From Eledone cirrhosa (lineage: Eukaryota), in NCBI GenBank assembly GCA_964016885.1, contig OZ024743.1, forward strand, positions 185,752,001 through 185,816,000: a stretch of DNA of 64,000 nucleotides. Direction: 5' to 3'. A program made the translations under genes and the position numbers. Within the stretch, counting starts at the first letter, position 1. Every line of letters begins with the position of its first letter. Under the pieces are notes generated by a model. The model worked only from the letters and a program-made list of their open reading frames with translations, ran no database searches and was not told the DNA's origin. This document shows positions 25,263 through 59,133 of the stretch, piece by piece.

Positions 25263-25374
25263 CTAGACCACCCGTGACCCATTGGGTCACATTCACTTAA
25301 AAATAGTTTTTAAATAATTAAAATATACACAGACATCTATCTTATGTAAAATGAAATTGGAAGGCCCATATATA

Positions 25375-25436
<62 letters not shown>

Positions 25437-33760: not shown

Positions 33761-33899
33761 CTGTAAGGGTAAACTTTGTACTTTCCTTCAGAATTCAATG
33801 AGCTTGTGATATTTTCAGCAATTATTCGTGCATGTTTATAAGCCTCGATATAATCACTGGAATTCTTCAACACAGTATGATAAGACATAAAGTAAGAAG
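33761..33899 (-). CDS. NPC1: NPC1 exon (139 bp)
   Basis: SSYFMSYHTVLKNSSDYIEAYKHARIIAENITSSLNSEGKYKVYPYS; AG/GT boundaries, phases 1 and 2. Confidence 0.95.
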
Positions 33900-34816: not shown

Positions 34817-35101
34817 CAATAATAATAGCTGATGGTTTAGATGTAAAGTCTGTAATATGACTGGTATACTGAGTAATAGTAGCTGATGGTTTAGATGTAA
34901 AGTGTGTAATATGACTGGTATACTGAGTAATAGTAGCTGATGGTTTAGATGTAAAGTGTGTAATATGACTGGTATACTGAGTAATAGTAGCTGATGGTTT
35001 AGATGAAGCGTGTGTAATATGACAGGTAGATTTAGTAATAATAGCTGATGGTTTAGATGTAAAGTGTGTAATATGACTAGTATATTATATATGGTTTAGA
35101 T
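34817..35101. repeat. Second array of the same 54-bp minisatellite (~5 units)
   Basis: Same unit as 31118-31597. Confidence 0.92.
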
Positions 35102-35127
35102 TAAAGGTTCTCAACAGGGGGGGGGGC

Positions 35128-35570
35128 ATTGTTTCCTCCCGTTGCATTGTATTTTCTACACCATCTTTATTTAGTCTGTTTATATATTTATTTATTTGTT
35201 TATTTATTATTTATTTTTTTGTCTTGTTTGCGCGTGTGTATAGTGTTTTGTTTGATGTGTGTTCGTGATTCGGTGACTGTGTATTAGTTAATGTATTTTA
35301 TCTTTACTAAATAAATAAATAGATAAATAAATAAATAAATAAAGACATACACAAGCACAATAACAACAAACACATAAACACACACTAGTAAAGATAGAAT
35401 ACATTAACCAATACACAGTCACCCAATCACGAACACACATCAAACAAAACACTATACACACACGCAAACGCATGCGCAAAGAAGGCAAAATAAAATAAAC
35501 AAATAAATAAATATATAAACAGACTAAATAAAGATGGCGTAGAAAATACAATGCAACGGGAGGAAACAAT
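35128..35570. repeat. Long inverted repeat (~180-bp arms, ~75-bp spacer)
   Basis: 35128-35309 is the reverse complement of 35386-35570 with scattered mismatches. Confidence 0.9.
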
Positions 35571-35818
35571 AGCACCACTGACGATGTTGCAGATGTGCAA
35601 CGAAAGAACTTTGATAAACTATATATATGTGTTTGTGTCTATATTGTATCTGTATTTTTGATCGTTGGTCAGTCAATGGCAACATTGAGGACCGAATAAG
35701 TTAGATTACCGATATAAAAGACACAGAAGCGAAAAGCGAAAAACCAACCAAACAGTGAGTGTGTTCTGTTATTAATTCTGGCAATATTACACAAATATGA
35801 CCCTCCCCAAGTATAACA

Positions 35819-35855
<37 letters not shown>

Positions 35856-35860
35856 AAATC

Positions 35861-35954
<94 letters not shown>

Positions 35955-35955
35955 C

Positions 35956-36019
<64 letters not shown>

Positions 36020-36020
36020 C

Positions 36021-36058
<38 letters not shown>

Positions 36059-36059
36059 C

Positions 36060-36103
<44 letters not shown>

Positions 36104-36104
36104 C

Positions 36105-36152
<48 letters not shown>

Positions 36153-36195
36153 CTACATACACATATATATATATATATATATATAAAATCTACAT

Positions 36196-36227
<32 letters not shown>

Positions 36228-36262
36228 ATCTACATACATATATATATATATATTTATAAATC

Positions 36263-36294
<32 letters not shown>

Positions 36295-36391
36295 AAATCT
36301 ACATACATACATATATATATATATTTATATATATATATAAAATCTACATACATACATATATATATATATTTATATATATATATATAAAATC

Positions 36392-36425
<34 letters not shown>

Positions 36426-36429
36426 AATC

Positions 36430-36469
<40 letters not shown>

Positions 36470-36515
36470 CTACATACATACATATATATATATATTTATA
36501 TATATATATAAAATC

Positions 36516-36557
<42 letters not shown>

Positions 36558-36609
36558 CATATATATATATATATATAAATCTACATACATATATATATAT
36601 ATATAAATC

Positions 36610-36654
<45 letters not shown>

Positions 36655-36671
36655 ACATACATATATATATC

Positions 36672-36720
<49 letters not shown>

Positions 36721-36721
36721 C

Positions 36722-36768
<47 letters not shown>

Positions 36769-36816
36769 CTACATACATATATATATATATATAAATCTAC
36801 ATACATATATATATAT

Positions 36817-37285
36817 AACTTTGAATAACTTTGAAATGTTTTGGCCAGTATTGGCCCAGGCCATGTCTAACTTAATAGCACCACCTGGCGAAGTCTTTAT
36901 ATTCAGGATTTGGGCACCATGGCCCATTCGAGAAGAGAATTACTGTTTGCGGAGACATATCCGGGTGTGGGTGGTTTGTCCGGGATTACCTGGAGGAATT
37001 TGTCCAAAGGCTTCTTGAATTTTGTGTGGTCAGTTTCTGTTTTGACGTGTCCTGGTGTGATGTTGAAGAGAGCAGGGCCGATTGAGGTGAAATAATTGTG
37101 CCGTATTGTTGTTATGAGTTGCGATTTAGATTTTTGAATGGGACGGATAGCACGGGGCCCAAGCCTTGGGTGTATCTTGAAGGCGATGCCAACATCATTT
37201 GGGCAGTGATGATGGAACATTTTCCACATCATGCAAATAATATAACGCTCACGGCGACGTTGGAGTGAGTAAAGTTTCAGGTTTT
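36817..37285 (-). mobile_element. 5'-truncated copy of the LINE at 40269-44940
   Basis: Nearly identical to 40280-40748 with scattered substitutions; same TTCAAAGTTA tail (2 units). Confidence 0.95.
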
Positions 37286-37298
37286 TTATATATAAATC

Positions 37299-37330
<32 letters not shown>

Positions 37331-37860
37331 AATCTACATACATATATATATAAATCTACATACATATATATATATATATAAATCTACATACATATATATA
37401 TATATATAAATCTACATACATATATATATATATAAATCTACATACATATATATATATATAAATCTACATACATATATATATAAATCTACATACATATATA
37501 TATATAAATCTACATACATATATATATATAAATCTACATACATATATATATATAAATCTACATACATATATATATATAAATCTACATACATATATATATA
37601 AATCTACATACATATATATATAAATCTACATACATATATATATAAATCTACATACATATATATATAAATCTACATACATATATATATATATATAAATCTA
37701 CATATATATATATAAATCTACATATATATATATAAATCTACATATATATATATATAAATCTACATACATATATATATAAATCTACATACATATATATATA
37801 AATCTACATACATATATATATAAATCTACATACATATATATAAATCTACATACATATATC

Positions 37861-37913
<53 letters not shown>

Positions 37914-37940
37914 CTACATACATATATATATATATAAATC

Positions 37941-37974
<34 letters not shown>

Positions 37975-38998
37975 AATCTACATACATACATATATATATA
38001 TATAAATCTACATACATATATATATATATATATAAATCTACATACATATATATATATATATATATAAATCTACATACATATATATATATATATATAAATC
38101 TACATACATATATATATATAAATCTACATACATATATATATATAAATCTACATACATATATATATATAAATCTACATACATATATATATATAAATCTACA
38201 TACATATATATATATAAATCTACATACATATATATATATAAATCTACATACATATATATAAATCTACATACATATATATAAATCTACATACATATATATA
38301 TATATATAAATCTACATACATATATATATAAATCTACATACATATATATATAAATCTACATACATATATATATAAATCTACATACATATATATATAAATC
38401 TACATACATATATATATAAATCTACATACATATATATATAAATCTACATACATATATATATAAATCTACATACATATATATATAAATCTACATACATATA
38501 TATATAAATCTACATACATATATATATAAATCTACATACATATATATATAAATCTACATACATATATATATAAATCTACATACATATATATATAAATCTA
38601 CATACATATATATATAAATCTACATACATATATATATAAATCTACATACATATATATATAAATCTACATACATATATATATATAAATCTACATACACATA
38701 TATATATAAATCTACATACATATATATATAAATCTACATACATATATATATAAATCTACATACATACATACATACATACATATATAAATATGCATATATA
38801 TAAATCTACATACATTCACTTTTCTCCAATTTCTCACTCACTTCCTACCTCGAGATTTCCCATCTGCATTGTTGTGGCTTTCTAAACTACATATATATAT
38901 ATATATAAATCTACATAATATATATATATATAAATCTACATACATATATATATATATATATATATAAATCTACATACATATATATATATATATAAATC

Positions 38999-39033
<35 letters not shown>

Positions 39034-39068
39034 CTACATATATATATATATATATATATATATAAATC

Positions 39069-39111
<43 letters not shown>

Positions 39112-39114
39112 CTC

Positions 39115-39151
<37 letters not shown>

Positions 39152-39238
39152 CTCTACATACATATATATATATATATAACTCTACATACATATATATATA
39201 TATATAAATCTACATACATATATATATATATATAAATC

Positions 39239-39270
<32 letters not shown>

Positions 39271-39274
39271 AATC

Positions 39275-39306
<32 letters not shown>

Positions 39307-39310
39307 AATC

Positions 39311-39342
<32 letters not shown>

Positions 39343-39346
39343 AATC

Positions 39347-39378
<32 letters not shown>

Positions 39379-39382
39379 AATC

Positions 39383-39416
<34 letters not shown>

Positions 39417-40329
39417 AATCTACATACATATATATATATATAAATCTACATACATATATATATATATAAATCTACATATATATATATATATAAATCTACA
39501 TACATATATATATATAAATCTACATACATATATATATATAAATCTACATACATATATATATATAAATCTACATACATATATATATATAAATCTACATACA
39601 TATATATATAAATCTACATACATATATATATAAATCTACATACATATATATATAAATCTACATACATATATATATAAATCTACATACATATATATATAAA
39701 TCTACATACATATATATATATAAACCTACATATATATAAACCTACATACATATATATAAACCTACATACATATATATATAAATCTACATACATATATATA
39801 TAAATCTACATACATATATATATAAATCTACATACATATATATATAAATCTACATACATATATATATAAATCTACATACATATATATATATAAATCTACA
39901 TACATATATATATATAAATCTACATACATATATATATATAAATCTACATACATATATATATATAAATCTACATACATATATATAAATCTACATACATATA
40001 TATAAATCTACATACATATATATAAATCTACATACATATATATATATAAATCTACATACATATATATATATAAATCTACATACATATATATATAAATCTA
40101 CATACATATATATATAAATCTACATACATATATATATATAAATCTACATACATATATATATATAAATCTACATACATATATATATATAAATCTACATACA
40201 TATATATATATAAATCTACATACATATATATATATAAATCTACATACATATATATATATAAATCTACATAACTTTGAATAACTTTGAATAACTTTGAAAT
40301 GTTTTGGCCAGTATTGGCCCAGGCCATGT

Positions 40330-43300
40330 CTAACTTAATAGCACCACCTGGCGAAGTCTTTCAATCCAGGATTTGGGCACCATGGCCCATTCGAGAAGAG
40401 AATTACTGTTTGCGGAGACATATCCGGGTGTGGGTGGTTTGTCCGGGATTACTTGGAGGAATTTGTCCAAAGACTTCTTGAATTTTGAGTGGTCAGTTTC
40501 TCTTTTGACGTGTCCTGGTGTGATGTTGAAGAGAGCAGGGCCGATTGAGGTGAAATAATTGTGCCGTATTGTTGTTATGAGTTGCGATTTAGATTTTTGA
40601 ATGGGACGGATAGCACGGGGCCCAAGCCTTGGGTGTATCTTGAAGGCGATGCAAACATCATTTGGGCAGTGATGATGGAACATTTTCCACATCATGCAGA
40701 TAATATAACGCTCACGGCGACGTTGGAGTGAGTAAAGTTTCAGGTTTTCCAATCGACCCCAGTAGTCAAGGTCTGACATGCCATCTATCTTTTTCGTGAT
40801 TGCCCTTTGAGGAGCTTCAAGTTTCATGATACTTTGTTTCGTGTGGGGAGACCACAGTGGACAACAGTATTCAAGGTGTGGTCGGGCGAAAGTAGAGAAG
40901 AGAAGGATAATGGTGCGGGAATCTCTCGACTGGAAGGTTCTGAGGATCCAGGAACACATTCTGCGGGCCATGTCAACTTTGCTGCTTATATGCGTGGTCC
41001 AGCTTATGTTGCTGTCCACGGTTACTCCCAAGTCTCTGATGTTGTTAGATGCCACGAGAGTTTCCCCGGAGGGAAGGGAGTACGGGAGTTTCAGAGCATC
41101 CTCTTTTCCAAAGTGGATCAGTTCGAATTTGTCCTCGTTCAGTAACATGTTGTTCTTTTCTGCCCATTGGGTAACAGCCAGTAGGTCTGACTGAAGGCTT
41201 ATCCGGTCATCCACGCCATTGATGACCTTTTGGAGCTTGGAATCATCAGCGAAAATTTTAATGTTGCTGTGTTTGATGATGTCAGTGATGTCATTAATAT
41301 AGATGATGAAGAGAAGTGGGCCCAACACAGTGCCTTGTGGGACTCCACTACTGACTTTGGCTGGGCTTGATTTGACTCCCTCAACTACAACATGTTGGGT
41401 TCTGTTTGACAGGAAGCTCTTGATCCACTGCAGCAGCTTTCCAGTGACACCAATATTGGACAGCTTTCTCAGTAGAATGTTATGATCAACCCTGTCAAAG
41501 GCCTTGCTGAAATCAAGGTAGATAACATCAGTGTTGGAACCCTCTCCCAAGGCTCTCAAAATGTCATCAAAGTGATGCAGTAGTTGCGTCAGGCAATCCC
41601 TTCCATTACGGAATCCATGCTGGTTGGAGTTCAGCATATTGTTACTCTCAAGGAAGTGGGTCATTCGCGATCTCACCACTCGCTCAAATACCTTAATGAT
41701 ATGAGAGGTGAGTGAGATTGGACGGTAATTCACGGCAAGGGATTTGTTTCCCTTTTTGAAAACTGGGACAACAGACTGGGATAGAAGGTTTTCTGGCACA
41801 TATCCAGCATCCAGTGAGTTCCGCCACAGATTGGCAAGAGGAGAAGCAAGTTGGTGTTGACACGCCTTCAGGACACAAGCAGGGAACCTATCGGGACCTA
41901 CTGCTGAATTATGCTTGATTTCCTTTATTGCCGCCAAGACATCAGGGGCGCCAAACGTTATGTCCGATAAGGTGTAATGGGGAGTAACATCGCCGATACA
42001 GCCCAGATCGGCCATATCAGGATTGCTGAAAACAGAGCAGTATTGTTTCTGCAGTATCTCACCCATGGTTTTAGCATTGTCTTGAAGAGTGCCATTTTCA
42101 TCAATTAGAGGGCCAACAGTAGAGCCAGTGATTTTGTGTTTTTTTGCAAATGAAAAGAACACTTTGGGATTGAGTTTGATCTTCTCAATGGCCCAGGCCT
42201 CTTCAGCTCTTCTCTGATTGTTGATGAGGGACATTATGTTGTTTTGGAGGTTATGTTTTTTAATCTCTAGTGATGAAATGGCAGTCAAGTTGATGTGTTG
42301 CTGCTGACAGTATTTCAGCTTGTTGATTTTTTTGTTCGTTCTCTTAATTTTTCTGATGAGCGTTTTTCTATTTCTAGGGATTCTGCTCTTAGATTTGTTT
42401 ATAGTTCTTAATGGGGTGTGTTTAGCACATATGTTTGTAACAGTGTCCACAAATGTCTGCCAGGACTTTTTGATGTTAGTGGGTGTATGAGTGTGCGTGA
42501 AGGACCAGTCGACATGTGCAAGATCATGACTGATCGCTTCCCAGTTTGCATTGTGGAAATCCATAGCGTCAAACGGATGGACAGGAGAGATGACATTGGG
42601 TTTGTATATTGGACGGTGGAATCTCAGATCACAGAGAACCATGTCATGATCAGAGAGTAGAGTTTTCTCCACTGCAATATTGTGGATATTGTCAGTGTGA
42701 TTGCTGAAAATTAAGTCTAGGACGTTTTTGTGGCACCTCGTTGGTTCGAGCACTAGTTGGGATAGGAAGAAATCATCCATGAAGTCAAGAAGTGATTCCA
42801 CAGCTTCCCTGTCAGAGGTTGAGGCAGAAGAACCTGGTGGCAGGGTGTTTGTGGACCAGTCAACTCCGGGGAGGTTGAAGTCCCCCATCATTAAGATGTT
42901 GTCAGGGTGACACTCTTGGATGAAACACTTTATGCTGTTGAGGCATTCCTTGAAGCATGGTACAGGCGTTTGGGGTGGCCTATAGAGCCCAACTACTAAT
43001 AGGTTGTTGGTTTGACTGAATACAGTGACTGCCTCACAGTATCCATTAGTGAATATGTTCATAGCCTCTGTTGAGAAAGAATTATGGACATAAATGGCAG
43101 TTCCGCCCTTTCTTCTGCCAGCGCGATCAGCACGGATGGCTTTGAAATTTTTCACTTTCACCTCGGCTTCCAAGTGGAGGTTACTGAGATGGGTTTCAGT
43201 GAGGACGAAGAAAGGGATGTGGTTTGGATGGACATCAATCCAGTCCTCCAGGAATTTGATCTTCCATTTTTGAGTATTGGTGGAAGGGCTGATGCCTTGG

Positions 43301-43386
43301 GCGTTAAGCAAAAATGTAGAGGCGAGAGTGGATGGTTTTAATTGTTTTGGTGTGTTGTTAATTTGTTTGTTTGTTAATGGCAGCAA
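40330..43386 (-). CDS. LINE ORF2: APE endonuclease and reverse transcriptase (open, ~1018 codons; annotated start is TTG)
   Basis: LNAQGI, LTETHL, GLYRPP, GDFNLP, LDLIFS, SDHD; NYRPISLTS, YLDFSKAFDRV, GVPQGTVLGP, FADD. Confidence 0.95.
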   Translation of the reverse strand: MLPLTNKQINNTPKQLKPSTLASTFLLNAQGISPSTNTQKWKIKFLEDWIDVHPNHIPFFVLTETHLSNLHLEAEVKVKNFKAIRADRAGRRKGGTAIYVHNSFSTEAMNIFTNGYCEAVTVFSQTNNLLVVGLYRPPQTPVPCFKECLNSIKCFIQECHPDNILMMGDFNLPGVDWSTNTLPPGSSASTSDREAVESLLDFMDDFFLSQLVLEPTRCHKNVLDLIFSNHTDNIHNIAVEKTLLSDHDMVLCDLRFHRPIYKPNVISPVHPFDAMDFHNANWEAISHDLAHVDWSFTHTHTPTNIKKSWQTFVDTVTNICAKHTPLRTINKSKSRIPRNRKTLIRKIKRTNKKINKLKYCQQQHINLTAISSLEIKKHNLQNNIMSLINNQRRAEEAWAIEKIKLNPKVFFSFAKKHKITGSTVGPLIDENGTLQDNAKTMGEILQKQYCSVFSNPDMADLGCIGDVTPHYTLSDITFGAPDVLAAIKEIKHNSAVGPDRFPACVLKACQHQLASPLANLWRNSLDAGYVPENLLSQSVVPVFKKGNKSLAVNYRPISLTSHIIKVFERVVRSRMTHFLESNNMLNSNQHGFRNGRDCLTQLLHHFDDILRALGEGSNTDVIYLDFSKAFDRVDHNILLRKLSNIGVTGKLLQWIKSFLSNRTQHVVVEGVKSSPAKVSSGVPQGTVLGPLLFIIYINDITDIIKHSNIKIFADDSKLQKVINGVDDRISLQSDLLAVTQWAEKNNMLLNEDKFELIHFGKEDALKLPYSLPSGETLVASNNIRDLGVTVDSNISWTTHISSKVDMARRMCSWILRTFQSRDSRTIILLFSTFARPHLEYCCPLWSPHTKQSIMKLEAPQRAITKKIDGMSDLDYWGRLENLKLYSLQRRRERYIICMMWKMFHHHCPNDVCIAFKIHPRLGPRAIRPIQKSKSQLITTIRHNYFTSIGPALFNITPGHVKRETDHSKFKKSLDKFLQVIPDKPPTPGYVSANSNSLLEWAMVPKSWIERLRQVVLLS

Positions 43387-44548
43387 TGGGAGTTTGTGCA
43401 GTGGGGTGATAGTGGAGGGTGGTGCTGGGTGATAGCTCGAATGTTTTTTTCCAGTTCTTTTGCCAGATTCATTATGGCTAAAAAAGAGGAAGAAGTTTCC
43501 TGTTTAGAAGACTGTTGGTGACTGTGGTAGTGGTTATTTTTATGTAGGTTATGGTTTTTGTTTTTGCTTTTATTTTTAATTTTATTTTCATTTATCCGAC
43601 GGGTCCCCGGGAGATGGGTAAAGGGACAATCCCGGTCTAAACACAATCTGTCTCGCAGGGAAAAACGGCAGATTTGTGGATTCCTTGTTTGAGTTATTGG
43701 TGGTTGTGTTGGTGTTAAATTAGAGTATGTATTATGGTGGTGGCTGTTTGTGGGGATAGATCGTTTTGTCCTAGGTAAATGGGTGAATTTGCAGCCACTA
43801 TCCGTACATATTCTATAGCGTAGAGAGTAGCGGCAAATGATGGGGTTTCGAGTGGGTGGGTATGTGGGTGTGGGTGTTGTGAGAGGTGTAGATGATTGTT
43901 TGGGTAGGATTTGACGACCTTTGTGGACTGTGGGAGGGAGAGTTCTTGTTCTGGTATTAGAAGGTAAATTCCTTGACATAGCAGTAGACAAAAATGTTGT
44001 AGTAGTAGTAGTAGTAGTAGGCAGAGATGTTGGCAGTGGTGATGATTGGACTGCTGGGCCAGAGAAAGGATGTGGCGTTTCATGCTGTGAGACAGAGGCT
44101 ACTGGGGGGTCAATAGTTTCATTTAGTAGATCGGCCATTGTTGATGAATCAAGGAGTGGTTCACACTGTTGTTGTCGTTGTTGTTGTTGCTGTTGTTGAT
44201 GTTGCTGTTGTAGCTGTTGTTGTTGTAGCTGTTGTTGTTGTAGCTGTTGTTGTTGTTGCTGTTGTAGCTGCTGTTGTTGTTGCTGCTGCTGCTGGACAGC
44301 ATTCGAAGAGAAAACACACCGTAGTTTATCCAAATGTTTATTGATTAATTTAAAAGCAATTTCGATTTGCTTTAATTTATTTTGAATCTGTTGTTCAGAT
44401 TTTTCAAAAATTGAACTGTACGTTTAGCAATGTCGTTCAGAGATGAAGCATCTATATTTTCTGTTTGGGAAAGGCAATGCCATGTGTTTATTAGAATGTC
44501 GATTTCATTATCAGACCAGTTCTGTTTGGATTTTTGCTGGTTAGCCAT
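43374..44548 (-). CDS. LINE ORF1: Myb/SANT-like N-terminus, polyQ, two CCCH zinc fingers; one 1-nt frameshift near 44400-44430
   Basis: ATG at 44548: MANQQKSKQNWSDNEIDILINTW..IAK, then in another frame IFEKSEQQIQNKLKQIEIAF..LDKLR, polyQ, CRYSLRYRICTDSGCKFTH and CRFSLRDRLCLDRDCPFTH. Confidence 0.75.
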
Positions 44549-46010
44549 TCTAGTTTTGAGTGTGTGTGTGTTTTAGTTAAGTATTTCAATATATATATAT
44601 TTTTTTTTTAAATTTATTTTTGATTTATTTTTGTTTTTTTGTTTTTCTTGTGTGTGAGTGAGAAGCGTATATATATAAATATGAGTATATATATATATAT
44701 ATATATGTATATTCTGGTTATTTGAAATTAATTAAGTTAATGAAAAGACGAAAGTATATAATAATAATTTGTAGTTAAAGGAAAATGTACTCACAAGTTC
44801 GTGTGTGTGTGTTTTAGTTAAGTATATCAATATATATATATTTTTTTTTAAATTTATTTTTGATTTATTTTTGTTTTTTGTTTTTCTTGTGTGTGAGTGA
44901 GAAGCGTATATATATAAATATGAGTATATATATATATATATCATACATATATCATACATATATATATATAAATCTACATACATATATATATATATATATA
45001 TAAACCTACATACATATATATATATAAACCTACATACATATATATATATAAACCTACATACATATATATATATAAACCTACATACATATATATATAAATC
45101 TACATATATATATATATAAATCTACATACATATATATATATATAAATCTACATACATATATATATAAATCTACATACATATATATATAAATCTACATACA
45201 TATATATATAAATCTACATACATATATATATAAATCTACATACATATATAAATCTACATACATATATATATAAATCTACATACATATATATATAAATCTA
45301 CATACATATATATATAAATCTACATACATATATATATATATAAATCTACATACATATATATATATAAATCTACATACATATATATATATATAAATCTACA
45401 TACATATATATATATATAAATCTACATACATATATATATATATAAATCTACATACATATATATATATATAAATCTACATACATATATATATATATAAATC
45501 TACATACATATATATATATAAATCTACATACATATATATATATAAATCTACATACATATATATATAAATCTACATACATATATATATAAATCTACATACA
45601 TATATATATATAAATCTACATACATATATATATATAAATCTACATATATATATATAAATCTACATATATATATATAAATCTACATACATATATATATATA
45701 AATCTACATACATATATATATAAATCTACATACATATATATATAAATCTACATACATATATATATAAATCTACATACATATATATATATAAATCTACATA
45801 CATATATATATATAAATCTACATACATATATATATATAAATCTACATACATATATATATATAAATCTACATACATATATATATATAAATCTACATACATA
45901 TATATATATAAATCTACATACATATATATATATAAATCTACATACATATATATATATAAATCTACATACATATATATATATAAATCTACATACATATATA
46001 TATATAAATC

Positions 46011-46043
<33 letters not shown>

Positions 46044-49000
46044 GAATCTACATACATATATATATAAATCTACATACATATATATATAAATCTACATACA
46101 TATATATATATATATATAAATCTACATACATATATATATAAATCTACATACATACATATATATATAAATCTACATACATACATACATACATATATAAATA
46201 TGCATATATATAAATCTACATACATTCACTTTTCTCCAATTTCTCACTCACTTCCTACCTCGAGATTTCCCATCTGCATTGTTGTGGCTTTCCAAACTAC
46301 ATATATATATATATATAAATCTACATAATATACATATATATAAATCTACATACATATATATATATATATATAAATCTACATACATATATATATATATATA
46401 TATAAATCTACATACATATATATATATATATATATAAATCTACATACATATATATATATATATATATAAATCTACATACATATATATATATATAAATCTA
46501 CATACATATATATATATATAAATCTACATACATATATATATATATATAAATCTACATACATATATATATATATATATAAATCTACATACATATATATATA
46601 TAAATCTACATACATATATATATAAATCTACATACATATATATATATAAACCTACATATATATAAACCTACATACATATATATATAAATCTACATACATA
46701 TATATATAAATCTACATACATATATATATAAATCTACATACATATATATATAAATCTACATACATATATATATAAATCTACATACATATATATATAAATC
46801 TACATACATATATATATAAATCTACATACATATATATATAAATCTACATACATATATATATAAATCTACATACATATATATATAAATCTACATACATATA
46901 TATATAAATCTACATACATATATATATAAATCTACATACATATATATATAAATCTACATACATATATATATATAAATCTACATACATATATATATATAAA
47001 TCTACATACATATATATATATAAATCTACATACATATATATATATAAATCTACATACATATATATATATAAATCTACATACATATATATATATATAAATC
47101 TACATACATATATATATATATAAATCTACATACATATATATATATAAATCTACATACATATATATATATATATAAACCTACATATATATATATAAATCTA
47201 CATACATATATATATATAAACCTACATACATATATATATAAATCTACATACATATATATATATAAATCTACATACATATATATATATAAATCTACATACA
47301 TATATATATATAAATCTACATACATATATATATATAAATCTACATACATATATATATATAAATCTACATACATATATATATAAATCTACATACATATATA
47401 TATAAATCTACATACATATATATATAAATCTACATACATATATATATAAATCTACATACATATATATATAAATCTACATACATATATATATAAATCTACA
47501 TACATATATATATAAATCTACATACATATATATATATAAATCTACATACATATATATATATAAATCTACATACATATATATATATAAATCTACATACATA
47601 TATATATATAAATCTACATACATATATATATAAATCTACATACATATATATATATAAACCTACATATATATAAACCTACATATATATAAACCTACATACA
47701 TATATATAAACCTACATACATATATATATAAATCTACATACATATATATATAAATCTACATACATATATATATAAATCTACATACATATATATATAAATC
47801 TACATACATATATATATAAATCTACATACATATATATATAAATCTACATACATATATATATAAATCTACATACATATATATATAAATCTACATACATATA
47901 TATATATAAATCTACATACATATATATAAATCTACATATATATATATAAATCTACATACATATATATATAAATCTACATACATATATATATAAATCTACA
48001 TACATATATATATAAATCTACATACATATATATATAAATCTACATACATATATATATAAATCTACATACATATATATATATAAATCTACATACATATATA
48101 TATATAAATCTACATACATATATATATATAAATCTACATACATATATATATATAAATCTACATACATATATATATATAAATCTACATACATATATATATA
48201 TAAATCTACATATATATATATAAATCTACATACATATATATAAACCTACATACATATATATATATATAAATCTACATACATATATATATATAAATCTACA
48301 TACATATATATATAAATCTACATACATATATATATAAATCTACATACATATATATATAAATCTACATACATATATATATAAATCTACATACATATATATA
48401 TAAATCTACATACATATATATATAAATCTACATACATATATATATAAATCTACATACATATATATATAAATCTACATACATATATATATAAATCTACATA
48501 CATATATATATAAATCTACATACATATATATATATAAATCTACATACATATATATATATAAATCTACATACATATATATATATAAATCTACATACATATA
48601 TATATAAATCTACATACATATATATATAAATCTACATACATATATATATAAATCTACATACATATATATATAAATCTACATACATATATATATATAAATC
48701 TACATACATATATATATATAAATCTACATAAATATATATATATAAATCTACATACATATATATATATAAATCTACATACATATATATATATAAATCTACA
48801 TACATATATATATATAAATCTACATACATATATATATATAAATCTACATACATATATATATATAAATCTACATACATATATATATATAAATCTACATACA
48901 TATATATATATAAATCTACATACATATATATATATAAATCTACATATATATATATAAATCTACATACATATATATAAACCTACATACATATATATATATA

Positions 49001-51432
49001 TAAATCTACATACATATATATATATAAATCTACATACATATATATATAAATCTACATACATATATATATAAATCTACATACATATATATATAAATCTACA
49101 TACATATATATATAAATCTACATACATATATATATAAATCTACATACATATATATATAAATCTACATACATATATATATAAATCTACATACATATATATA
49201 TAAATCTACATACATATATATATAAATCTACATACATATATATATAAATCTACATACATATATATATAAATCTACATACATATATATATAAATCTACATA
49301 CATATATATATAAATCTACATACATATATATATAAATCTACATACATATATATATAAATCTACATACATATATATATAAATCTACATACATATATATATA
49401 AATCTACATACATATATATATATATAAATCTACATATATATATATAAATCTACATACATATATATAAACCTACATACATATATATATATATAAATCTACA
49501 TACATATATATATATATAAATCTACATACATATATATATATATAAATCTACATACATATATATATATAAATCTACATACATATATATATAAATCTACATA
49601 CATATATATATAAATCTACATACATATATATATAAATCTACATACATATATATATAAATCTACATACATATATATATAAATCTACATACATATATATATA
49701 AATCTACATACATATATATATAAATCTACATACATATATATATAAATCTACATACATATATATATAAATCTACATACATATATATATAAATCTACATACA
49801 TATATATATAAATCTACATACATATATATATAAATCTACATACATATATATATAAATCTACATACATATATATATAAATCTACATACATATATATATAAA
49901 TCTACATACATATATATATAAATCTACATACATATATATATAAATCTACATACATATATATATAAATCTACATACATATATATATAAATCTACATACATA
50001 TATATATAAATCTACATACATATATATATATAAATCTACATACATATATATATATAAATGTACATACATATATATATATAAATCTACATACATATATATA
50101 TAAATCTACATACATATATATATATAAATCTACATACATATATATATATATATAAATCTACATACATATATATATATAAATCTACATACATATATATATA
50201 TAAATCTACATACATATATATATATAAATCTACATACATATATATATAATAAATCTACATACATATATATATATAAATCTACATACATATATATATATAT
50301 AAATCTACATACATATATATATATATAAATCTACATACATATATATATATATAAATCTACATACATATATATATATAAATCTACATACATATATATATAT
50401 AAATCTACATACATATATATATATAAATCTACATACATATATATATATAAATCTACATACATATATATATATATAAATCTACATACATATATATATATAA
50501 ATCTACATACATATATATATATAAATCTACATACATATATATATATAAATCTACATACATATATATATATATATAAATCTACATACATATATATATATAT
50601 ATATATAAATCTACATACATATATATATAAATCTACATACATATATATATAAATCTACATACATATATATATATATATATATATAAATCTACATACATAT
50701 ATATATAAATCTACATACATATATATAAATCTACATACATATATATAAATCTACATACATATATATATATAAATCTACATACATATATATATATAAATCT
50801 ACATACATATATATATATAAATCTACATACATATATATATATAAATCTACATACATATATATATAAATCTACATACATATATATATATAAATCTACATAC
50901 ATATATATATATATAAATCTACATACATATATATATATAAATCTACATACATATATATATAAATCTACATACATATATATATATAAATCTACATACATAT
51001 ATATATAAATCTACATACATATATATACATAAATCTACATACATATATATACATAAATCTACATACATATATATATATAAATCTACATACATATATATAT
51101 ATAAATCTACATACATATATATATATAAATCTACATACATATATATATATAAATCTACATACATATATATATAAATCTACATACATATATATATAAATCT
51201 ACATACATATATATATAAATCTACATACATATATATATATAAATGTACATACATATATATATATATAAATCTACATACATATATATATATAAATCTACAT
51301 ACATATATATATATAAATCTACATACATATATATATAAATCTACATACATATATATATAAATCTACATACATATATATATAAATCTACATACATATATAT
51401 ATAAATCTACATACATATATATATAAATCTAC

Positions 51433-51471
<39 letters not shown>

Positions 51472-51478
51472 AATCTAC

Positions 51479-51517
<39 letters not shown>

Positions 51518-51524
51518 AATCTAC

Positions 51525-51572
<48 letters not shown>

Positions 51573-51573
51573 C

Positions 51574-51609
<36 letters not shown>

Positions 51610-51638
51610 TATATAAATCTACATACATACATACATAT

Positions 51639-53040
51639 CATTCATCATCATCATTTCATTTTACGTCCGCTTTTCCCTGCTTACAAGGGTGGGACGGGTC
51701 TTATTCAGCACAGCATCTCTCCACTCGCCACGGTCCCTCGTCATCTCCACCGTGAGCTTCAATGATCTAAGGTCCGTTCTCACCACCTCCGCCCATGTTT
51801 TTCGTGGTCTACCTCTACCATGTCTTCCTTCAACAGGCATTTCCTGGCACTTCTTCACCCATCGGTCATCCTCCATGCGCATCACATGTCCATACCACCT
51901 CAGTCTCCTCTCCCGTACACTACATTCTATCCCTCTCAGACACAGTTTCTCTCTCAACACATTTATGCTGGGTCGTTCATGCACATTTACACTGCACATC
52001 CAACGGAGCATGCTTGCCTCATTTCTCTCCAGCCGTTGCATATCCTCTGCAATTGCTGCCCATGTCTCACTACCATGCAGCATCGCGCTCCTCACACAGG
52101 CATCATACAACCGGCCTTTCGTACGCAGGGAGAAACCCTTCTTCGTCAACAGAGGAAGCAGCTCCCTAAACTTCTTCCAACCCGTCCTTATTCTAGATAC
52201 TATGGCCTCGGAACACCCTCCTCCCATGCTAATCTGATCTCCTAGGTAGCGGAAGCTATCCACCACTTCTATAGCGCCCTCTTGCATTTGAAAAATGTGT
52301 CTATCAGTGCGACTTCTTCCGTCTAATTTCCCTGTACATCTACTGCATACATATTTCTCCCTACCTGTTAGTTTGCCTGCTATCCCGCTACATCTCTTGT
52401 GTACCCAGGATCTGCATTGTGTGCATTTTATAGAATTTATGCCAGTTCCTTTTCTGCATATCGAACATGGCCATTTCCTTGACGGAATCAGGGTTTTGTC
52501 CTCTTTTCTACTCATCAACACTTTTGTCTTAGCTAGATTTACTCTCAGTCCTCTTGCTTCCAACTGCTGTTTCCATAGCCAGAATTTATTCTCTAGCTCC
52601 TCTACTGATTCTGCTATAAGAACCAGATCGTCAGCATAGAGCAGTTCCCATGGACAGCCAGTCTTAAACTCCTCTGTTATGGCTTGGAGGACTATAATGA
52701 ACAAGAGCGGGCTGAGGACCGAACCCTGATGTACTACTTGTATCTGGAATTCCTCACTAAACTCCATTCCTACCCTGACTTTACTGAGAGTACCTCTGTA
52801 CAAAGTTTGCACTGTCCTCACAAGCCATTCCTCAACACCTAGCTTCCTTAGGGACCACCAGATGACAGATCGGGGTACCCTATCAAAGGCCTTCTCTAGG
52901 TCAACAAAGGCTAAGTATAGTGGCTTATTCTTCTCCAAGAACCTCTCTTGCATTTGTCTCACCAAGAAGAGGGCATCTGTTGTACTCTTCCCAGGCACAA
53001 AACCAAACTGCATCTCATCTAGTTTGACCCTTTCTCTAAT
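51639..53040 (-). mobile_element. 5'-truncated RTE LINE (open RT and C-terminus) at the edge of the minisatellite
   Basis: QFGFVPGKSTTDA, AFVDLEKAFDRVP, LLYADD, PHD-like finger, GRPRKTW; tail AAATGAAATGATGATGATG. Confidence 0.95.
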
Positions 53041-53145
53041 ATATATATTTTCTAAATATATATATATATATATAAATCTACATGCATACATACATATATA
53101 TATATATATATAAATCTACATACATACATATATTTATATATATAT

Positions 53146-53489
53146 CATTTCATCATCATCATTTCATTTTACGTCCGCTTTTTCCCTGCTTGCAAGGGTG
53201 GGACGGGAACTGATGCTGGCTTGATTTCTACAGTTGGATGCCCTTCCTAACACCAACCTCATTTACAGTGCGTGCTGGGTACTTTTTTGCCATGGCACCT
53301 CCACGACCACTTTGCAGTGGAATGATAGGGACCCCAATCCTATCATCTCATTTCTACAGCTGAGTAAACTTGAGCAATGTGAAATAAAGTGTCTTGCTCA
53401 ACGAAACAACACATCACCCGGTCTGAGAGTTGAACTCACAACCTTTCGATTGCAAGGCCAATGCTCTAACCACTAAGCCATGTGCCTCC

Positions 53490-53490
<1 letters not shown>
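53146..53490 (-). mobile_element. SINE with a tRNA-like head and RTE-type tail
   Basis: GGCACATGGCTTAGTGGTTAGAGC..GAGTTCAACTCTC; 3' ~55 nt nearly identical to the RTE end at 51640-51700. Confidence 0.85.
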
Positions 53491-53561
<71 letters not shown>

Positions 53562-53571
53562 AATCTACATA

Positions 53572-53607
<36 letters not shown>

Positions 53608-53617
53608 AATCTACATA

Positions 53618-53656
<39 letters not shown>

Positions 53657-53665
53657 ATCTACATA

Positions 53666-53704
<39 letters not shown>

Positions 53705-53877
53705 ATCTACATATATTTATATATATATATACATATAAATCTACATCTACATATATTTATATATATATATATAAATCTACATACATACATATATACATAC
53801 ATATGTATGTATATAGGTATGCATTTATACATTTGTATATATATACATGCATTTATATTTAAGTGTGTAAGGTTATA

Positions 53878-53918
<41 letters not shown>

Positions 53919-54243
53919 ACAATATATATATTATACACACACACATATATAGATATATATATAGATATATATATATATATATATATATATGCAGTGTGAC
54001 AAGAAGCTTGTTTCCCAACCACATATTTCCGGGTTCAGTCCCACTGCCCGAGCCGACCAAAGCCCTGTGAGTGGATGGAAACTAAAAGAAGCCCATCGTA
54101 TATATGTATATATGTCTGTGTGTGTCTTTGCGTTTGTTTGCCCTCCCACCAATGCTTGTTGGTTTGTTGACGTCCCCGTAACTTAGCAAGGTGATGCTCC
54201 AGCATCGGCGTAGTCCAGAGACAGAAAAAAAGTAAAATATATA

Positions 54244-54281
<38 letters not shown>

Positions 54282-54295
54282 TGTGTGTGTAGAAG

Positions 54296-54699
54296 AGGGG
54301 TCTCAAACTCAAGGACACAAAAGGGCTATTACGTCCTGGAGGAGAGGCACAGTGGGCCAAACGTGATGGTGGGAGAAAATTTTCACCAGTTATAATCATT
54401 TCTACTATAGGAACAAGGCATGAAGTTTTCGGTTTAGGGTTCAGTCGATTGCATCGATCCTAGTACACAACTGGTACTTAATTCATCGACCCCAAAAGGA
54501 TGAAAGGCAAAGTTGAGATCGGCGGAATTTGAACTCAGAACGTAAAAACGGAAGAAGTACCATTAAGGATTTCGCCAGATGTGCTAACGATTCCACCAGC
54601 TTGCCGCCTTATTTTCACCAGTTATAATGCGATATGAAATATTGGTTCTACCACGGGCCACAGATAAGTAGTTCGCGGGCCGCATGTGCGAGCCCCCTG
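54296..54699. mobile_element. hAT-type MITE interrupted by a SINE (54397-54610, minus) with an 18-bp target duplication
   Basis: Ends GAGGGGTCTCAAAC / GTGCGAGCCCCCTG; ATTTTCACCAGTTATAAT at both 54379-54396 and 54611-54628. Confidence 0.7.
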
Positions 54700-55589
54700 T
54701 TGGAGATAAATAGATAGATAGACGTGTACCAAACACACACACATTTCTTACTCTCTCTGTCCCTCCCTCTTTCTCTCTTCTTGTGTGTGTGTGTGTGTGT
54801 GTGGAGCGTTGTTATTTGGCGTCGTTGAAAAGAGCAGTGGCCTTTGACCTGGCAATAAAAAAACTGTAGACAAAATTCTTTCTGTACCCAAACCAAAGCA
54901 CACACACACACACGTTTGTGTGTGTGTATGTATATGTGTGTCTGTGTGTGTGTGCATGCGCATCTATGTGTGTTTGTGTGTATCTATCTATGTATATATA
55001 TATAAGGGATACAAATACTACTTTCTCACTGTCCCCAAGCATCATTCGTTGCTAAGTATTTTATTTTGCTACGAGGTATTTTATTTTGCAAGGTACTATT
55101 TTTCCCCCCGAGTTTGTGATTTCAGAGAAAGGTAAGAAATTCTTCATATTTTACATCTTTTGTATTTTGACTTTACAGTTTGAATTGTAGAATTGTTTAT
55201 CCAATCAAAATATTACAAGAGCTAACAGTGAAATATAGAATTTAAAAAAAAAGCTTTTTCAACTGAAATCAAGTCTTTGAGAACATTCAAGTCTATTTTT
55301 CAAAAATATATAATTTGAAATATTTTGCTTTTGTTTTGGACTGAAACTTTTTTTGTATTTAATTCGAATGGGTATTTTTTAAAGATCTTTTTAAAGATTC
55401 TAACATAACTTGATTTGGCCCTGCGGCATTCATATTTCTCAACTTATAAGTAAGTCCGTACAACAAGCTTCACTTATCAAAACTGTTCTAGATTACGTGA
55501 ATGAATTGCGAAAACTATATAGTACATTAGGGAAATTTAAGCAAGCGTATTTATCACAACATGATTAAGAAAATGAAGTATCGTCACCA

Positions 55590-55870
55590 CGCTCCTTAAC
55601 ACCTGTGTGCCCTACTCGATGGCTAACACGACTTTCTGCAGTCAAACCCCTTGACAATTATTTAGATGTCCCTATTTCTTTACAAGAGGCAACAAATGAG
55701 TTTGGCACCAACATTGCATCCAGAGCTAATGTTATTCTTACGTGTCACTCTCCGGGCCAATGTGTTCTTGGATTGCACGTTGTAGTTCCATTACTTCAAT
55801 TCCTTGAAGGATTGAAGAAATCTTTTCAAAGTACCACCTTCAATCTAGGTAGCATGTTGCTTCTTTGAAC
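55590..55870 (+). pseudogene. hAT transposase fragment (ZMYM1/Tip100-like CPTRW motif)
   Basis: LCPTRWLTRLSAV...LLQFLEGLKKSFQS. Confidence 0.55.
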
Positions 55871-55879
55871 TGTTCGACT

Positions 55880-56594
55880 ATCATTGAGTTTCTTCAAGGA
55901 CGCAACACAGAACTGTATAAAAAAAACCCTCGATGTGAGGCAAGACTGCGCCTACCTCGCCAACATCTTCGACAAATGCAATAGCCTCATTATGGCTTTG
56001 CAGGAGGAGAAGATCACCTTGTTTAAAGCAAGGAATGCTGTGAAAATATTCCTGGCCAAATTGAAAGTCATCGAAAGGAATCTTTGTCGACGGGAATTCT
56101 ATAATTTTCCTAGTGTTGCCAATGTTCAAAACATTGTGAGCGATGACCAACTCCAAATTTATACACGAGAACAACATGACAACATGAGAACGGTTTGTCG
56201 ACCTTTTGCAGATGGACATCCCAATGTGGATAGCAGATCTCTTCATAGCTAACGTCGACGATTTCGACGTTAAATTTCAGGAAGAATTAATTGAACTTCA
56301 GACAGATGACATTATCAAAATTAAATTTTCCAAAATAGGTGAACCCCTTTTTTGGATGCAAGAAGAAATTCAGCGTCGATTTCCACTCCTACATGCAGAG
56401 GCTAAGAGATTTGCTTTGCTTTTTCCTAGCTCATACTTAATCGAGAGGGGTTTGGCGTTGTTTCCAGACTGCATAGTAAGGTTCGCAACTGCTACAATGT
56501 GATTGCACGTGGAGATCTCCGGCTACAGCTCACGAAAATCCAGCCCGACGTCAAAGAGTTAGCTAAACTCCATGAAGCTCAAGGGTCCCATTGA
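55880..56594 (+). pseudogene. hAT Charlie/Buster-type transposase C-terminal remnant (frameshifted)
   Basis: AYLANIFDKCNSLIMALQ..F.AKL, W..D.F, FQEELIELQTD, FW....RFPLL, LLFPSSYLIERG, GDLRLQLTKIQPDV..L...HEAQGSH*. Confidence 0.85.
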
Positions 56595-57326
56595 TACGAG
56601 GTCAAAGTAAGTCGATTTTTTATTTGTAGTTGCAGTCTGACTGGACTGGAAACCATCTACCACAATTCACTTACTCATTTGTTGTATATATTTTACCGTT
56701 TACTAATGAATATACCCTCTTACGAGATCATGAAAACCCTCTTGCGTGGTCACAAAGCGGAGGGGACATCAAGTTAGATATCAACATTTATTCTGTCTGT
56801 TTTATTAAAGGGAAAATTGGAAAGCTTTGAAATAATACAATTGCCACTTTCTTCCAGATAAGAGCACTCTTTGGATAGACAGAGTTGCTCTTGTATAAAT
56901 GTTCAAAATAGTTGGTATCGTCTGGTGGGAATATAACAAATTCAACTGGTCCTTATTCATAAAAAAGAACATTTATGCTCCTTTTTTTGAAATTTATATA
57001 CTTCCTTTCAAGGAATGTATTTATACTTTCAACTGCCTGCAATGGTATCTTTGGAATATCGTTAATCAATTTTTTAGTAATCGACTGATATCAAAATCAG
57101 TAGTATATTGAAAAATGGAAAAATAGGGTAGGGGGCGTTTCGTGATTTTGAGGTGCAAAAGGGGGCGTTTGGCCGAAATGGGTTGAGAACTTTTGGTTTA
57201 GATGAAACAGAGAGTGAGAGAGACCTTTGTTGAAATTTGAAGAAACCAAATATATTCCTTATACCATTGATAAAATGATAGGCTATGTAGTAGTGTATAA
57301 AATAGGACAATTGAAATATAACTCAC

Positions 57327-57385
57327 ACAACACTTCAGTCTTATTTTCATTAAACTTCAGAGCAGAAGCATATGCTCCGCGACCA
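57327..57385 (-). CDS. NPC1: NPC1 small exon (59 bp)
   Basis: TTTTGCAG|T GGT CGC GGA GCA TAT..GTG TTG T|GTGAGT = (G)GRGAYASALKFNENKTEVL(S); phases fit both neighbouring exons. Confidence 0.9.
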
Positions 57386-58377
57386 CTGCAAAATAGAATT
57401 AATTTTAAAATAAATTTTAAATTATAAATTTCATAAAAGACATGAAAAATAATCTAATTTTAAATCATCATCATCATACATCCACTTAACGATGATGATT
57501 TAATATTAGATTATTTTTTATATATAATATACACAAAAAAAATATTAATAAAAATTTCTTTTATTTGCCACAAGGGTTAACAATATTCACAATAAAAACT
57601 AAAAATGATAAGGGCAGTGTCCCAGCATGGCCTCAGCTGGATGGCTGGAACAAGTAAAAGAGTAATGATGATGGCTATGGTAATACTAGTGGACCCATGC
57701 CATCAATAATGCCAACAATAGCATTGAATGTATTTCATTTTTAGAGTCTAGGATTAGTATACCATATATACTAGGATTACTGAATATATGCACAATCATA
57801 GAAACTGGGAAATTTGAATTTTTATAAATTAATAATTAGCAGAAGAGAAACCCTATAGTTTATGTTGATTACTGACATGTGACAAAGATTAAAGGAAAAA
57901 ATGATATTTTAATAATTTATTTCAAGGATATAATTACATAAATGTTTAGCATATATGTACAAATGACATACAGGGACACATATAGAGTGAGAAACCAGGA
58001 CCTTGTGACTGGAATGTACATTCCTTATAGTAGCAACATTGGTGGAGATATATATAAATATACAAAACACATATGGCATATTACTATGGTTGATCTTACA
58101 TTTCCATTACACATTTTGTAATTGATCCAGACTTTATTTTATCAACTTGAGTAGGATGAACGGTATAGCTGATCTTGACTTTAAATGGGAATTATGAAAA
58201 GGATGATTTAGGGTGGTGGGGTGGTAGTTTTTGATAGAGTACTGAATCAATTAAATTGAATGTAACCCAACCCTCAAATTAAGCAAATGTTACAAATATA
58301 GAAATAAATGTAAACAAAAAAAAAAAAAAAAAAAAAAAATCAATTATATTCAACAAGTGTTGAACACATTTTGAATT

Positions 58378-58489
58378 TTTGGAAGTATGTTAGTTTAACG
58401 TGAGCTGCTTCAACATAAGTTTTTAGACTATTTTCATAGTCTAAAAACTTATGTTCAAGCAGCTTATTTTAAGCTAATATACTTCTAAA
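58378..58489. other. Near-perfect 54-bp hairpin with a 4-nt loop
   Basis: 58378-58431 pairs with 58436-58489; on the plus strand there are 5 G-U pairs and 2 mismatches. Confidence 0.85.
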
Positions 58490-59009
58490 GAGAAATAGAT
58501 ATTGTTATACTAGCATGGGTTAGACAAGTTGTCCCATTATGAGACAAGCTAAATCAGATTACTGTGTTTTGCTCATACAGAACTGATTCGGACTTGGTTT
58601 CTATGACTGGATGCCCTTTCTAACGATAACCACATTTACAGTGTGGACAGAACTTTTTGCCGTGACGCCTACACAACCACTTTACAGTGTGTGCTGGGTG
58701 CTTTTTGTCATGGCACCAGATATCTTAAATATTAATAATTAACAATAATTAAACATTAATAATTTAAGAGTGAAAATGTGATAACTCTACTGAAACCACA
58801 TGTATGTTGATGATCATTTTCTCCTTCTCTAGAAAAAATTGGCTAGGCTAAGATTTGGAGAAGGAATATGTTCCACTAGGTTTAAAATGCTCAAGATATG
58901 CTGTATGTCATGAAGGCACCCATACAACTTCAGGAGTTACAGGTCCATACATACACACATGTTGAGAATTGTTACAGAGATATTAGAGAGAACTAAAACT
59001 ACAACTAAC

Positions 59010-59133
59010 CCTTTTGGACAATTCACACTGGGTATAGACTTCAAAAACCAAGGTAAATAAGTCATAAAGTCTTTAGGGTCTGGTCGTTTATCTTGCATTT
59101 TTACTTTACATGGAACGCAATCAGGATCGACGA
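59010..59133 (-). CDS. NPC1: NPC1 exon (124 bp; cysteine-rich luminal domain)
   Basis: VVDPDCVPCKVKMQDKRPDPKDFMTYLPWFLKSIPSVNCPKG; AG/GT boundaries. Confidence 0.95.

Follow-up and report, generated by a model that had tools for sequence, protein, structure and literature searches.

Buster-type hAT transposons (AnBT and Mar, with the domesticated ZBED5, ZBED7, ZBED8 and ZBED9) have an 8-bp target-site duplication of the form nnnTAnnn, 14-bp terminal inverted repeats (TIRs), a transposase of approximately 600 amino acids (aa) and deletion derivatives (PMC3517528, PMC12637253, PMC3606216). In maize, Ds1 elements of 0.8–24 kb are swollen by retrotransposons, Ds2-13 reaches 12.7 kb and Ds2 contains filler DNA (PMC3260210), while in single-copy animal Pack-TIRs foreign DNA enters a resident element after its insertion, at short microhomologies (PMC8277862). 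The locus considered here lies in a window of 64,000 bp of Eledone cirrhosa (contig OZ024743.1, positions 185,752,001–185,816,000), where a span of 22,094 bp (35102–57195) occupies most of one intron of the NPC1 gene. This span is likely an old copy of an abundant Buster-type hAT family that settled in a short intron, then probably grew in place approximately eightfold and is predicted to be immobile. It shares the nnnTAnnn duplication, the 14-bp terminal repeats and the state of a deletion derivative with Buster elements; unlike them, the NPC1 copy is 22 kb long, lacks 60% of its transposase and has a left end split by approximately 20 kb. As in the inflated Ds elements, a hAT derivative with both tips and the duplication has swollen to a similar size and shows internal filler replacement, whereas its bulk consists of a minisatellite and of long interspersed nuclear element (LINE) and RTE sequences rather than long terminal repeat (LTR) retrotransposons, the element is a Buster and not an Ac transposon, and the site is an animal intron. 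A 0.44-kb piece of a second hAT fits gap-filling of the kind described for single-copy Pack-TIRs; unlike the DNA captured there, it is transposase sequence and not a host gene, and it makes up 2% of the span. Literature searches of partial coverage, judged from listings, revealed no report in which the length of a long intron in an animal is explained by one hAT. With inflated hAT shells of this size already published for maize, the locus is a clear, well-resolved but ordinary case of intron growth. Further context is found in PMC13652810 and PMC3942097.

The intron and the two ends of the element are delimited by the following features.

33761–33899, minus strand: NPC1 exon downstream of the intron, matching human NPC1 residues 1035–1081 (E = 5e-10)
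33900–57326, minus strand: NPC1 intron of 23,427 bp (GT...AG), placed by the borders and identity of the exons
57327–57385, minus strand: 59-bp NPC1 exon on the upstream side of the intron, placed by AG/GT borders and frame continuity with the neighbouring exons
35094–35101, plus strand: left copy of the 8-bp target duplication, with a central TA; also a motif of the adjoining 54-bp minisatellite
35102–35127, plus strand: left terminal inverted repeat of the hAT (14 bp) and a ten-G run, together all that remains of the contiguous left end
57182–57195, minus strand: right terminal inverted repeat of the hAT, preceded by GGGGGCG at 57131 and 57161
57196–57203, plus strand: right copy of the 8-bp target duplication, an exact match to the left copy

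The 8-mer GTTTAGAT was found without mismatch on both sides of 35102–57195, as had been claimed in the first-pass annotation of this window, and its TA at positions 4–5 fits the Buster target consensus nnnTAnnn, again as claimed; an 8-bp target-site duplication belongs to the definition of hAT elements (PMC3517528). The terminal repeats lie within the 5–27 bp expected of hAT elements, and inverted terminal repeats are thus present, although the same annotation had called them matching and the 14-base ends pair at 12 of 14 positions in the window sequence. Their 9-base core occurs exactly twice in the 64 kb, once per strand and both times at an end of the element. G-rich subterminal motifs had been described for both ends; the right end has GGGGGCG twice, whereas the left end has the ten-G run only.

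The read data covered positions 55000–57900 (2,901 bases, on the right side only) and consisted of three contig sets of one sample (X1, X2 and X3) and a restriction site-associated DNA (RAD) run of another sample (X4); summed contig depth is not copy number. The summed depth was intermediate at 55000–55096, 11,200–16,600 at 55097–55387, 370–1,200 at 55485–55872, 5,700–25,400 at 55873–57036 and 53,000–62,000 at 57037–57133, and just past the right terminal repeat it dropped from approximately 19,000–22,000 to 9–12 (57231–57327). This thousandfold step shows that the right end is the terminus of a very abundant family. At position 57191, where the window has T, the family base is C (9,942 of 10,161 depth in X1, from 82 contigs, likewise in X2 and X3, and 407 of 411 reads in X4), so that with the base carried by approximately 98% of the depth the right end pairs with the left end at 13 of 14 positions. 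Other copies join 55421 to 57076 (seen in 5, 3 and 2 contigs, and in 120 reads with 15 starts), as well as 55189 to 57086 and 55236 to 57175. These joints of inner DNA to the right end identify one more part of the family to which the right end belongs.

55073–55421, plus strand: inner left-end DNA of the Buster-type hAT family, recognized by depth and by joints in other copies; its left border is uncertain and may lie further left

Left-end DNA of the family inside the span needs a left tip, and 35102 is the sole left-tip site within two mismatches, which suggests that this tip belongs to the same copy. The right end and the inner left end are joined directly in other copies, and the left tip is linked to them by the 13/14 match and the G run alone. 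With the right end fixed by the transposase and the reads, chance pairing amounts arithmetically to approximately 17 upstream 8-mers × 9e-6 = 1.5e-4. The feature is real and, most likely, one element. A search for the 20-base right-end motif gave no matches in metagenome, genome and viral contigs. The sequence CCCTG at 55419–55423 was considered as the end of a third hAT and rejected: no convincing partner was found for it within four mismatches in the span, and the reads assign 55073–55421 to the Buster family.

A number of observations weigh against a single inflated element. The 8-mer GTTTAGAT is locally common (18 copies on the plus strand, mostly in the 54-bp minisatellite, whose array stops 10 bp before the left copy), and the right flank, tried and rejected as a continuation of the 54-bp unit, resembles that unit at chance level, with 27% of 5,000 background stretches scoring as high or higher. 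When the window was scanned blind with its repeats masked, 4 of 40,827 pairs of direct repeats showed an inverted match at 12 of 14 positions, against 7 such pairs in 20 simulated windows; since three other look-alike pairs lie within the window, and such pairs also arise in simulation, the pattern of duplication and terminal repeats alone is not proof. Only 13–14 bases connect the left tip with the family, since the reads cover the right side and not the left junction. The contig sets X1–X3 represent one sample, which may be the source of the assembly; each contains one low-depth contig across the right junction, with 30, 30 and 33 inner-side letters, of which only the last passes the 31-letter threshold. 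Among the RAD loose ends listed, the best one (position 57190; agreement 0.69 in 324 reads) has other terminal letters; these match the left end at no more than 12 of 14 positions, as does the right end of the window itself. An empty site was not seen among the matches listed for reads on 55000–57900, where an empty allele could be hidden among 415 further differences and 1,573 further loose ends. In addition, the stretch 54702–55072 is assigned to no element, and a comparison of the left insertion point with 53960–54020, 54690–54740 and 54990–55130 revealed no duplication of at least 9 bases that would mark the outermost insert.

Two separate hAT insertions at two GTTTAGAT sites in an intron that was formerly longer, with their inner ends trimmed and part of the interior being old host intron, would account for some of these observations: the 18 copies of GTTTAGAT fit the Buster target, the family is very abundant, look-alike pairs arise in the window, deletions did happen in the span, and 53991–55072 resembles an ordinary intron repeat mix. 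However, such a history would require two further end losses without trace, and the window contains no third core. No tip adjoins the inner left-end DNA at 55073–55421, and the isolated tip at 35102 is exactly the missing piece; the remainder of the intron also fits the sizes of the other NPC1 introns. Two insertions are therefore considered unlikely.

The look-alike pairs (4064/32184, 7518/11112 and 9642/63286) are exact 8-bp direct repeats with an inverted match at 12–13 of 14 positions; they serve as examples of false positives and look like inverted copies of dispersed repeats. The unique flank at 57231–57424 has a summed depth exceeding that of the junction contig by 3.4–4.8 in each of X1–X3, owing either to a second haplotype or to stray pieces, whereas the X4 depth on the unique flank (0–0.07) is uninformative on polymorphism. 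The 54-bp minisatellite, which supplies the target 8-mer of the hAT, is present in two adjacent NPC1 introns (31117–31598 and 34820–35084), with a lone unit between them (32204).

Two pieces of transposase sequence lie inside the right end.

55422–55859, plus strand: internal part of the transposase of a second hAT of a different kind, corresponding to residues 408–554 of a 792-aa relative (78% identity), with no ends of its own
55877–56594, plus strand: 3' part of a Buster-type transposase, residues 353–594 of the 594-aa relative P0001, frameshifted, found by homology search

Homology to the transposase stops at 56591, approximately 0.6 kb inside the right end, which is where the first-pass annotation had placed a Buster-type remnant. 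The closest relative of the fragment is P0001 (73% identity over 94 residues), for which the 119 best relatives show 47–56% identity; those of them that have a name are mostly SCAND3-, ZBED5- and ZBED8-like. ZBED5 corresponds to Buster1 and ZBED7–9 to Buster2–4 (PMC3606216). The presence of hAT transposase residues 353–594 is thus assigned through named relatives, and by similarity to these, not by a tree, the transposase belongs to the Buster clade. Pfam gave no hAT match for the transposase fragments or for P0001, and PDB gave none for P0001. The N-terminal half (residues 1–352) is absent from the window: the 119 relatives and their profile matched nothing of it, and produced one small extra match at 3750–3824. 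Consequently, the element is not an intact shell, since residues 1–352 are gone and the piece of the second hAT stands in their place; it likewise differs from an autonomous Buster element, an intact 2.5–3 kb unit with an open transposase, in the missing residues and in the frameshifts of the rest.

The small extra match belongs to a second, different Buster remnant, which combines the last 25 transposase codons (3750–3824, plus strand) with a right terminal repeat (5258–5271, minus strand) that has G-rich motifs and is followed by an 8-mer with a central TA. Other repeat DNA fills the approximately 1.4 kb that separate its two parts, and no left end was seen.

The 792-aa relative of the second hAT piece carries DUF4371 and hAT dimerisation domains; to judge from the likeness of motifs, and not from a tree, the piece may be of the Tip family. 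Most contigs on this stretch are 90–99% alike, and a contig of 418 bp (depth 373) agrees with the piece over 319 positions except at 4 letters and 3 gap positions, beyond which it is unlike the window; this near-identity indicates that the donor family is young. The simplest reading of the replacement is internal loss with filler acquired by template switching, and deletion with filler has been described for Ds2 (PMC3260210) and Pack-TIRs (PMC8277862). The junction of the second hAT at 55421 is also the base from which other copies of the Buster family jump to 57076, an unexplained coincidence, and reads of the second hAT family show 11 extra letters at this junction.

Searches with P0001 revealed no relative in metagenome contigs (85 candidates) or plasmids, and searches with the alignment of its relatives gave none of 37 candidates in viral contigs and one locus among 15 candidates in genome contigs (L001). 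This distant Buster relative, 34% identical, has a left end and no right end: at L001:528–550, its 5' end shows the core and then a G run, as at 35102–35127, preceded by an 8-mer with a central TA. The contig that carries this apparently eukaryotic element (L001:528–3145, with an open frame and the left end) is from a bacterial genome bin, and the element is joined there to bacterial-looking DNA, which is likely contamination or misassembly.

The fold-back and hammerhead, the minisatellite, two LINE copies, an RTE, short interspersed nuclear elements (SINEs), a miniature inverted-repeat transposable element (MITE) and the second hAT fragment, all listed in the first-pass annotation as cargo, were located inside the element as follows (RT, reverse transcriptase).

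35128–35824, plus strand: fold-back (arms 35128–35309 and 35386–35570), then a hammerhead core motif (35578–35605); likely a Penelope-like remnant
35825–53990, plus strand: TA-rich minisatellite with a unit of approximately 22 bp, approximately 11.3 kb in five blocks (35825–36815, 37283–40268, 44907–51638, 53039–53147 and 53492–53990), defined by counts of a 9-base core
36807–37285, minus strand: short 3' LINE copy with 96.4% identity to the long one across 496 bases, borders approximate
40257–44925, minus strand: near full-length LINE, with an endonuclease–RT frame open for 1,057 codons (40330–43503)
51639–53038, minus strand: 5'-truncated RTE-like retrotransposon with an open RT frame (RVT_1, 7e-26), 69% like a copy at 28440–29675
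53148–53490, no strand given: SINE-like dispersed repeats, with matches elsewhere in the window of up to 95%
53991–54294, no strand given: putative SINE-like sequence and a TG repeat, from the sequence and the TG array
54295–54699, plus strand: hAT-like MITE from another family, with a SINE inside it that is framed by an exact 18-bp duplication at 54379 and 54611
54702–55072, no strand given: simple-repeat-rich stretch, the right part of which may be hAT left-end DNA in view of the intermediate depth at 55000–55096

The RTE and SINE labels (for 51639–53038, and for 53148–53490 and 53991–54294, respectively) are putative, and the dispersed repeats may resemble octopus SINEs. With borders that are approximate, the span is composed of minisatellite (11.3 kb, 51%), the two LINE copies (5.1 kb, 23%), the RTE-like element (1.4 kb, 6%), SINE-like pieces and the MITE (1.1 kb, 5%), the fold-back with its hammerhead core (0.7 kb, 3%), the second hAT (0.4 kb, 2%), the remaining simple-repeat-rich stretch (0.4 kb, 2%) and 1.7 kb (8%) of Buster DNA proper. 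The 9-base core of the minisatellite occurs 395 times in the five blocks and on neither strand outside the element; confined in this way, the blocks represent one array interrupted by later insertions, and array sequence flanks the LINE and RTE copies. The inner parts look younger, given that the LINE frame is open for 1,057 codons and the second hAT piece is nearly identical to a high-depth contig. The first frame of the long LINE is Gln-rich and frameshifted, with two Cys3His-like motifs, and this apparently young copy also ends in a 3' tail with a 10-bp tandem repeat and has part of its 5' region duplicated. Strict nesting was found only for the SINE in the MITE (by its 18-bp duplication) and for the LINEs and the RTE within the array. 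Accordingly, the picture of a Russian doll of nested cargo holds for these insertions, whereas half of the span is tandem-repeat growth, and an internal deletion with a patch affected the hAT itself.

The inverted partial 5' copy, the hammerhead motif and the nearby TA repeat at 35128–35824 resemble insertions of Penelope-like elements, for which an inverted 5' copy, a hammerhead motif and proximity to a TA microsatellite are described and a fold-back at the junction is typical (PMC8557442); a pseudo-LTR link of the Penelope-like hammerhead is given in a preprint (10.64898/2026.07.22.740005). The two arms are alike at 170 of 181 aligned bases. Unlike Penelope-like elements, this stretch has no RT or GIY-YIG frame among the frames of at least 100 codons nearby, and of the hammerhead only the core is recognisable; it was therefore classified as a likely remnant. 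The core with stem II occurs once in the window, Rfam gave no matches, and the fold is no better than that of shuffled sequences (z = 0.21), with stems I and III unformed.

The interior also bears on whether gap-filling repair of the Pack-TIR type brought in the large insert as one block from another site, rather than the insert having been built in place within one hAT. The second hAT piece shows that filler did enter, but all recognised interior sequence is repeat-derived, with no host gene sequence recognised inside (54702–55072 being unassigned), the array is interrupted by elements of seemingly different ages, and the fold-back stands at the junction itself, as is typical when Penelope-like elements insert (PMC8557442), so that wholesale copying appears less likely still than two insertions. 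It should also be considered that the ends are real and the length is partly an assembly artefact, with minisatellite blocks over-expanded or misjoined. Approximately 11 kb of near-identical short units, one block of them 6.7 kb long, and read data restricted to the right side leave some room for this; however, the window contains no N, approximately 10.8 kb of the span is not array in any case, and an alignment of the two LINE copies over 496 bases contains 14 mismatches and 4 gaps, so that they are not an assembler's duplicate. Such an artefact is regarded as highly improbable.

For one hAT grown in place, the following course would be consistent with these data. An element of approximately 2.8 kb would have inserted at GTTTAGAT in an intron of 1.3 kb, and a Penelope-like fold-back would then have landed 26 bp inside the left tip, severing it from the inner left end. 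The adjoining TA-rich array would subsequently have expanded to approximately 11 kb, interrupted by two copies of a young LINE, the RTE and SINEs. In a separate event, the 5' 60% of the transposase may have been lost and the 0.44-kb piece of a younger hAT substituted, most simply through break repair with template switching. Half of the growth is thus likely expansion of the TA-rich minisatellite, and most of the rest is likely retrotransposon insertion. A more specific chain reaction, in which the dead hAT served as a neutral landing site, the Penelope-like insert seeded the minisatellite, and the array expanded and drew in the young LINE and RTE, which would have a preference for it, so that a 1.3-kb intron grew 18-fold within the lifetime of one family, is doubtful. 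If it were true, the approximately one thousand copies of the family, with the duplication marking the start, would form a genome-wide dated ruler with which to ask whether cascades seeded by arrays produced the long introns of this lineage. In the window, more RTE-like or LINE-like fragments lie outside any long array (953–1774, 27770–29737 and 62318–63071, all on the plus strand), which means that not every retroelement here sits in a minisatellite.

Intron sizes before and after growth can be read from the sequence (1.3 and 23.4 kb), which makes the locus a worked example. Ten NPC1 exons were placed by AG/GT borders, one acceptor being approximate; the exon at 61634–61824 (minus strand) matches human NPC1 residues 862–927. 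By subtraction of exon borders, the remaining eight introns measure approximately 1.2, 1.2, 1.5, 1.6, 1.8, 2.0, 3.0 and 3.6 kb. The bracketed element accounts for 94% of the intron, and its removal together with one copy of the duplication leaves 1,325 of 23,427 bp, in agreement with the first estimate of approximately 1.3 kb; this remainder is as short as the neighbouring introns (1.2–3.6 kb). The term giant intron, used earlier, is generous, 23 kb being below the 50-kb average of lungfish introns (PMC7875771), and the proposal of a general route to long introns cannot be supported by one locus. At this intron, tandem-repeat expansion adds more bases than any transposon, and the locus can serve as a teaching example and a test locus; its significance would increase if many copies of the family showed an array-seeded cascade or if the site were polymorphic.

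The suggestion that the unit might be mobilised in trans, in which case its LINE could reach new sites, was not supported. Both tips and the duplication are kept, the right end retains approximately 600 bp, and a relative with an open frame of 594 aa is present in public assemblies. Maize macrotransposons move 100 kb (PMC3260210), so that size alone is no bar to movement, which counts against the prediction of immobility. However, 26 contiguous bp of the left tip precede the fold-back, with the remaining left-end DNA approximately 20 kb away, compared with the more than approximately 64 bp needed by AnBT, another Buster element, in which 24-bp ends are non-functional, left ends of 41 and 64 bp have very limited activity and an 8.5-kb cargo lowers activity by approximately 90% (PMC12637253). 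Tol2 needs 200 and 150 bp, and several hATs need ends of 150–200 bp (PMC10368747). Moreover, one base of the right end departs from approximately 98% of the family depth, and the open relative is just 73% identical to the fragment. Mobilisation of the 22-kb unit in trans is thus predicted to be unlikely, mainly because the left end is split, as judged from another element; a unit that is still mobile appears extremely improbable.

Elsewhere in the window, two open frames of 116 and 334 codons (11663–14278, plus strand) may encode a hydrophobic, transporter-like protein and lie tail to tail with NPC1.

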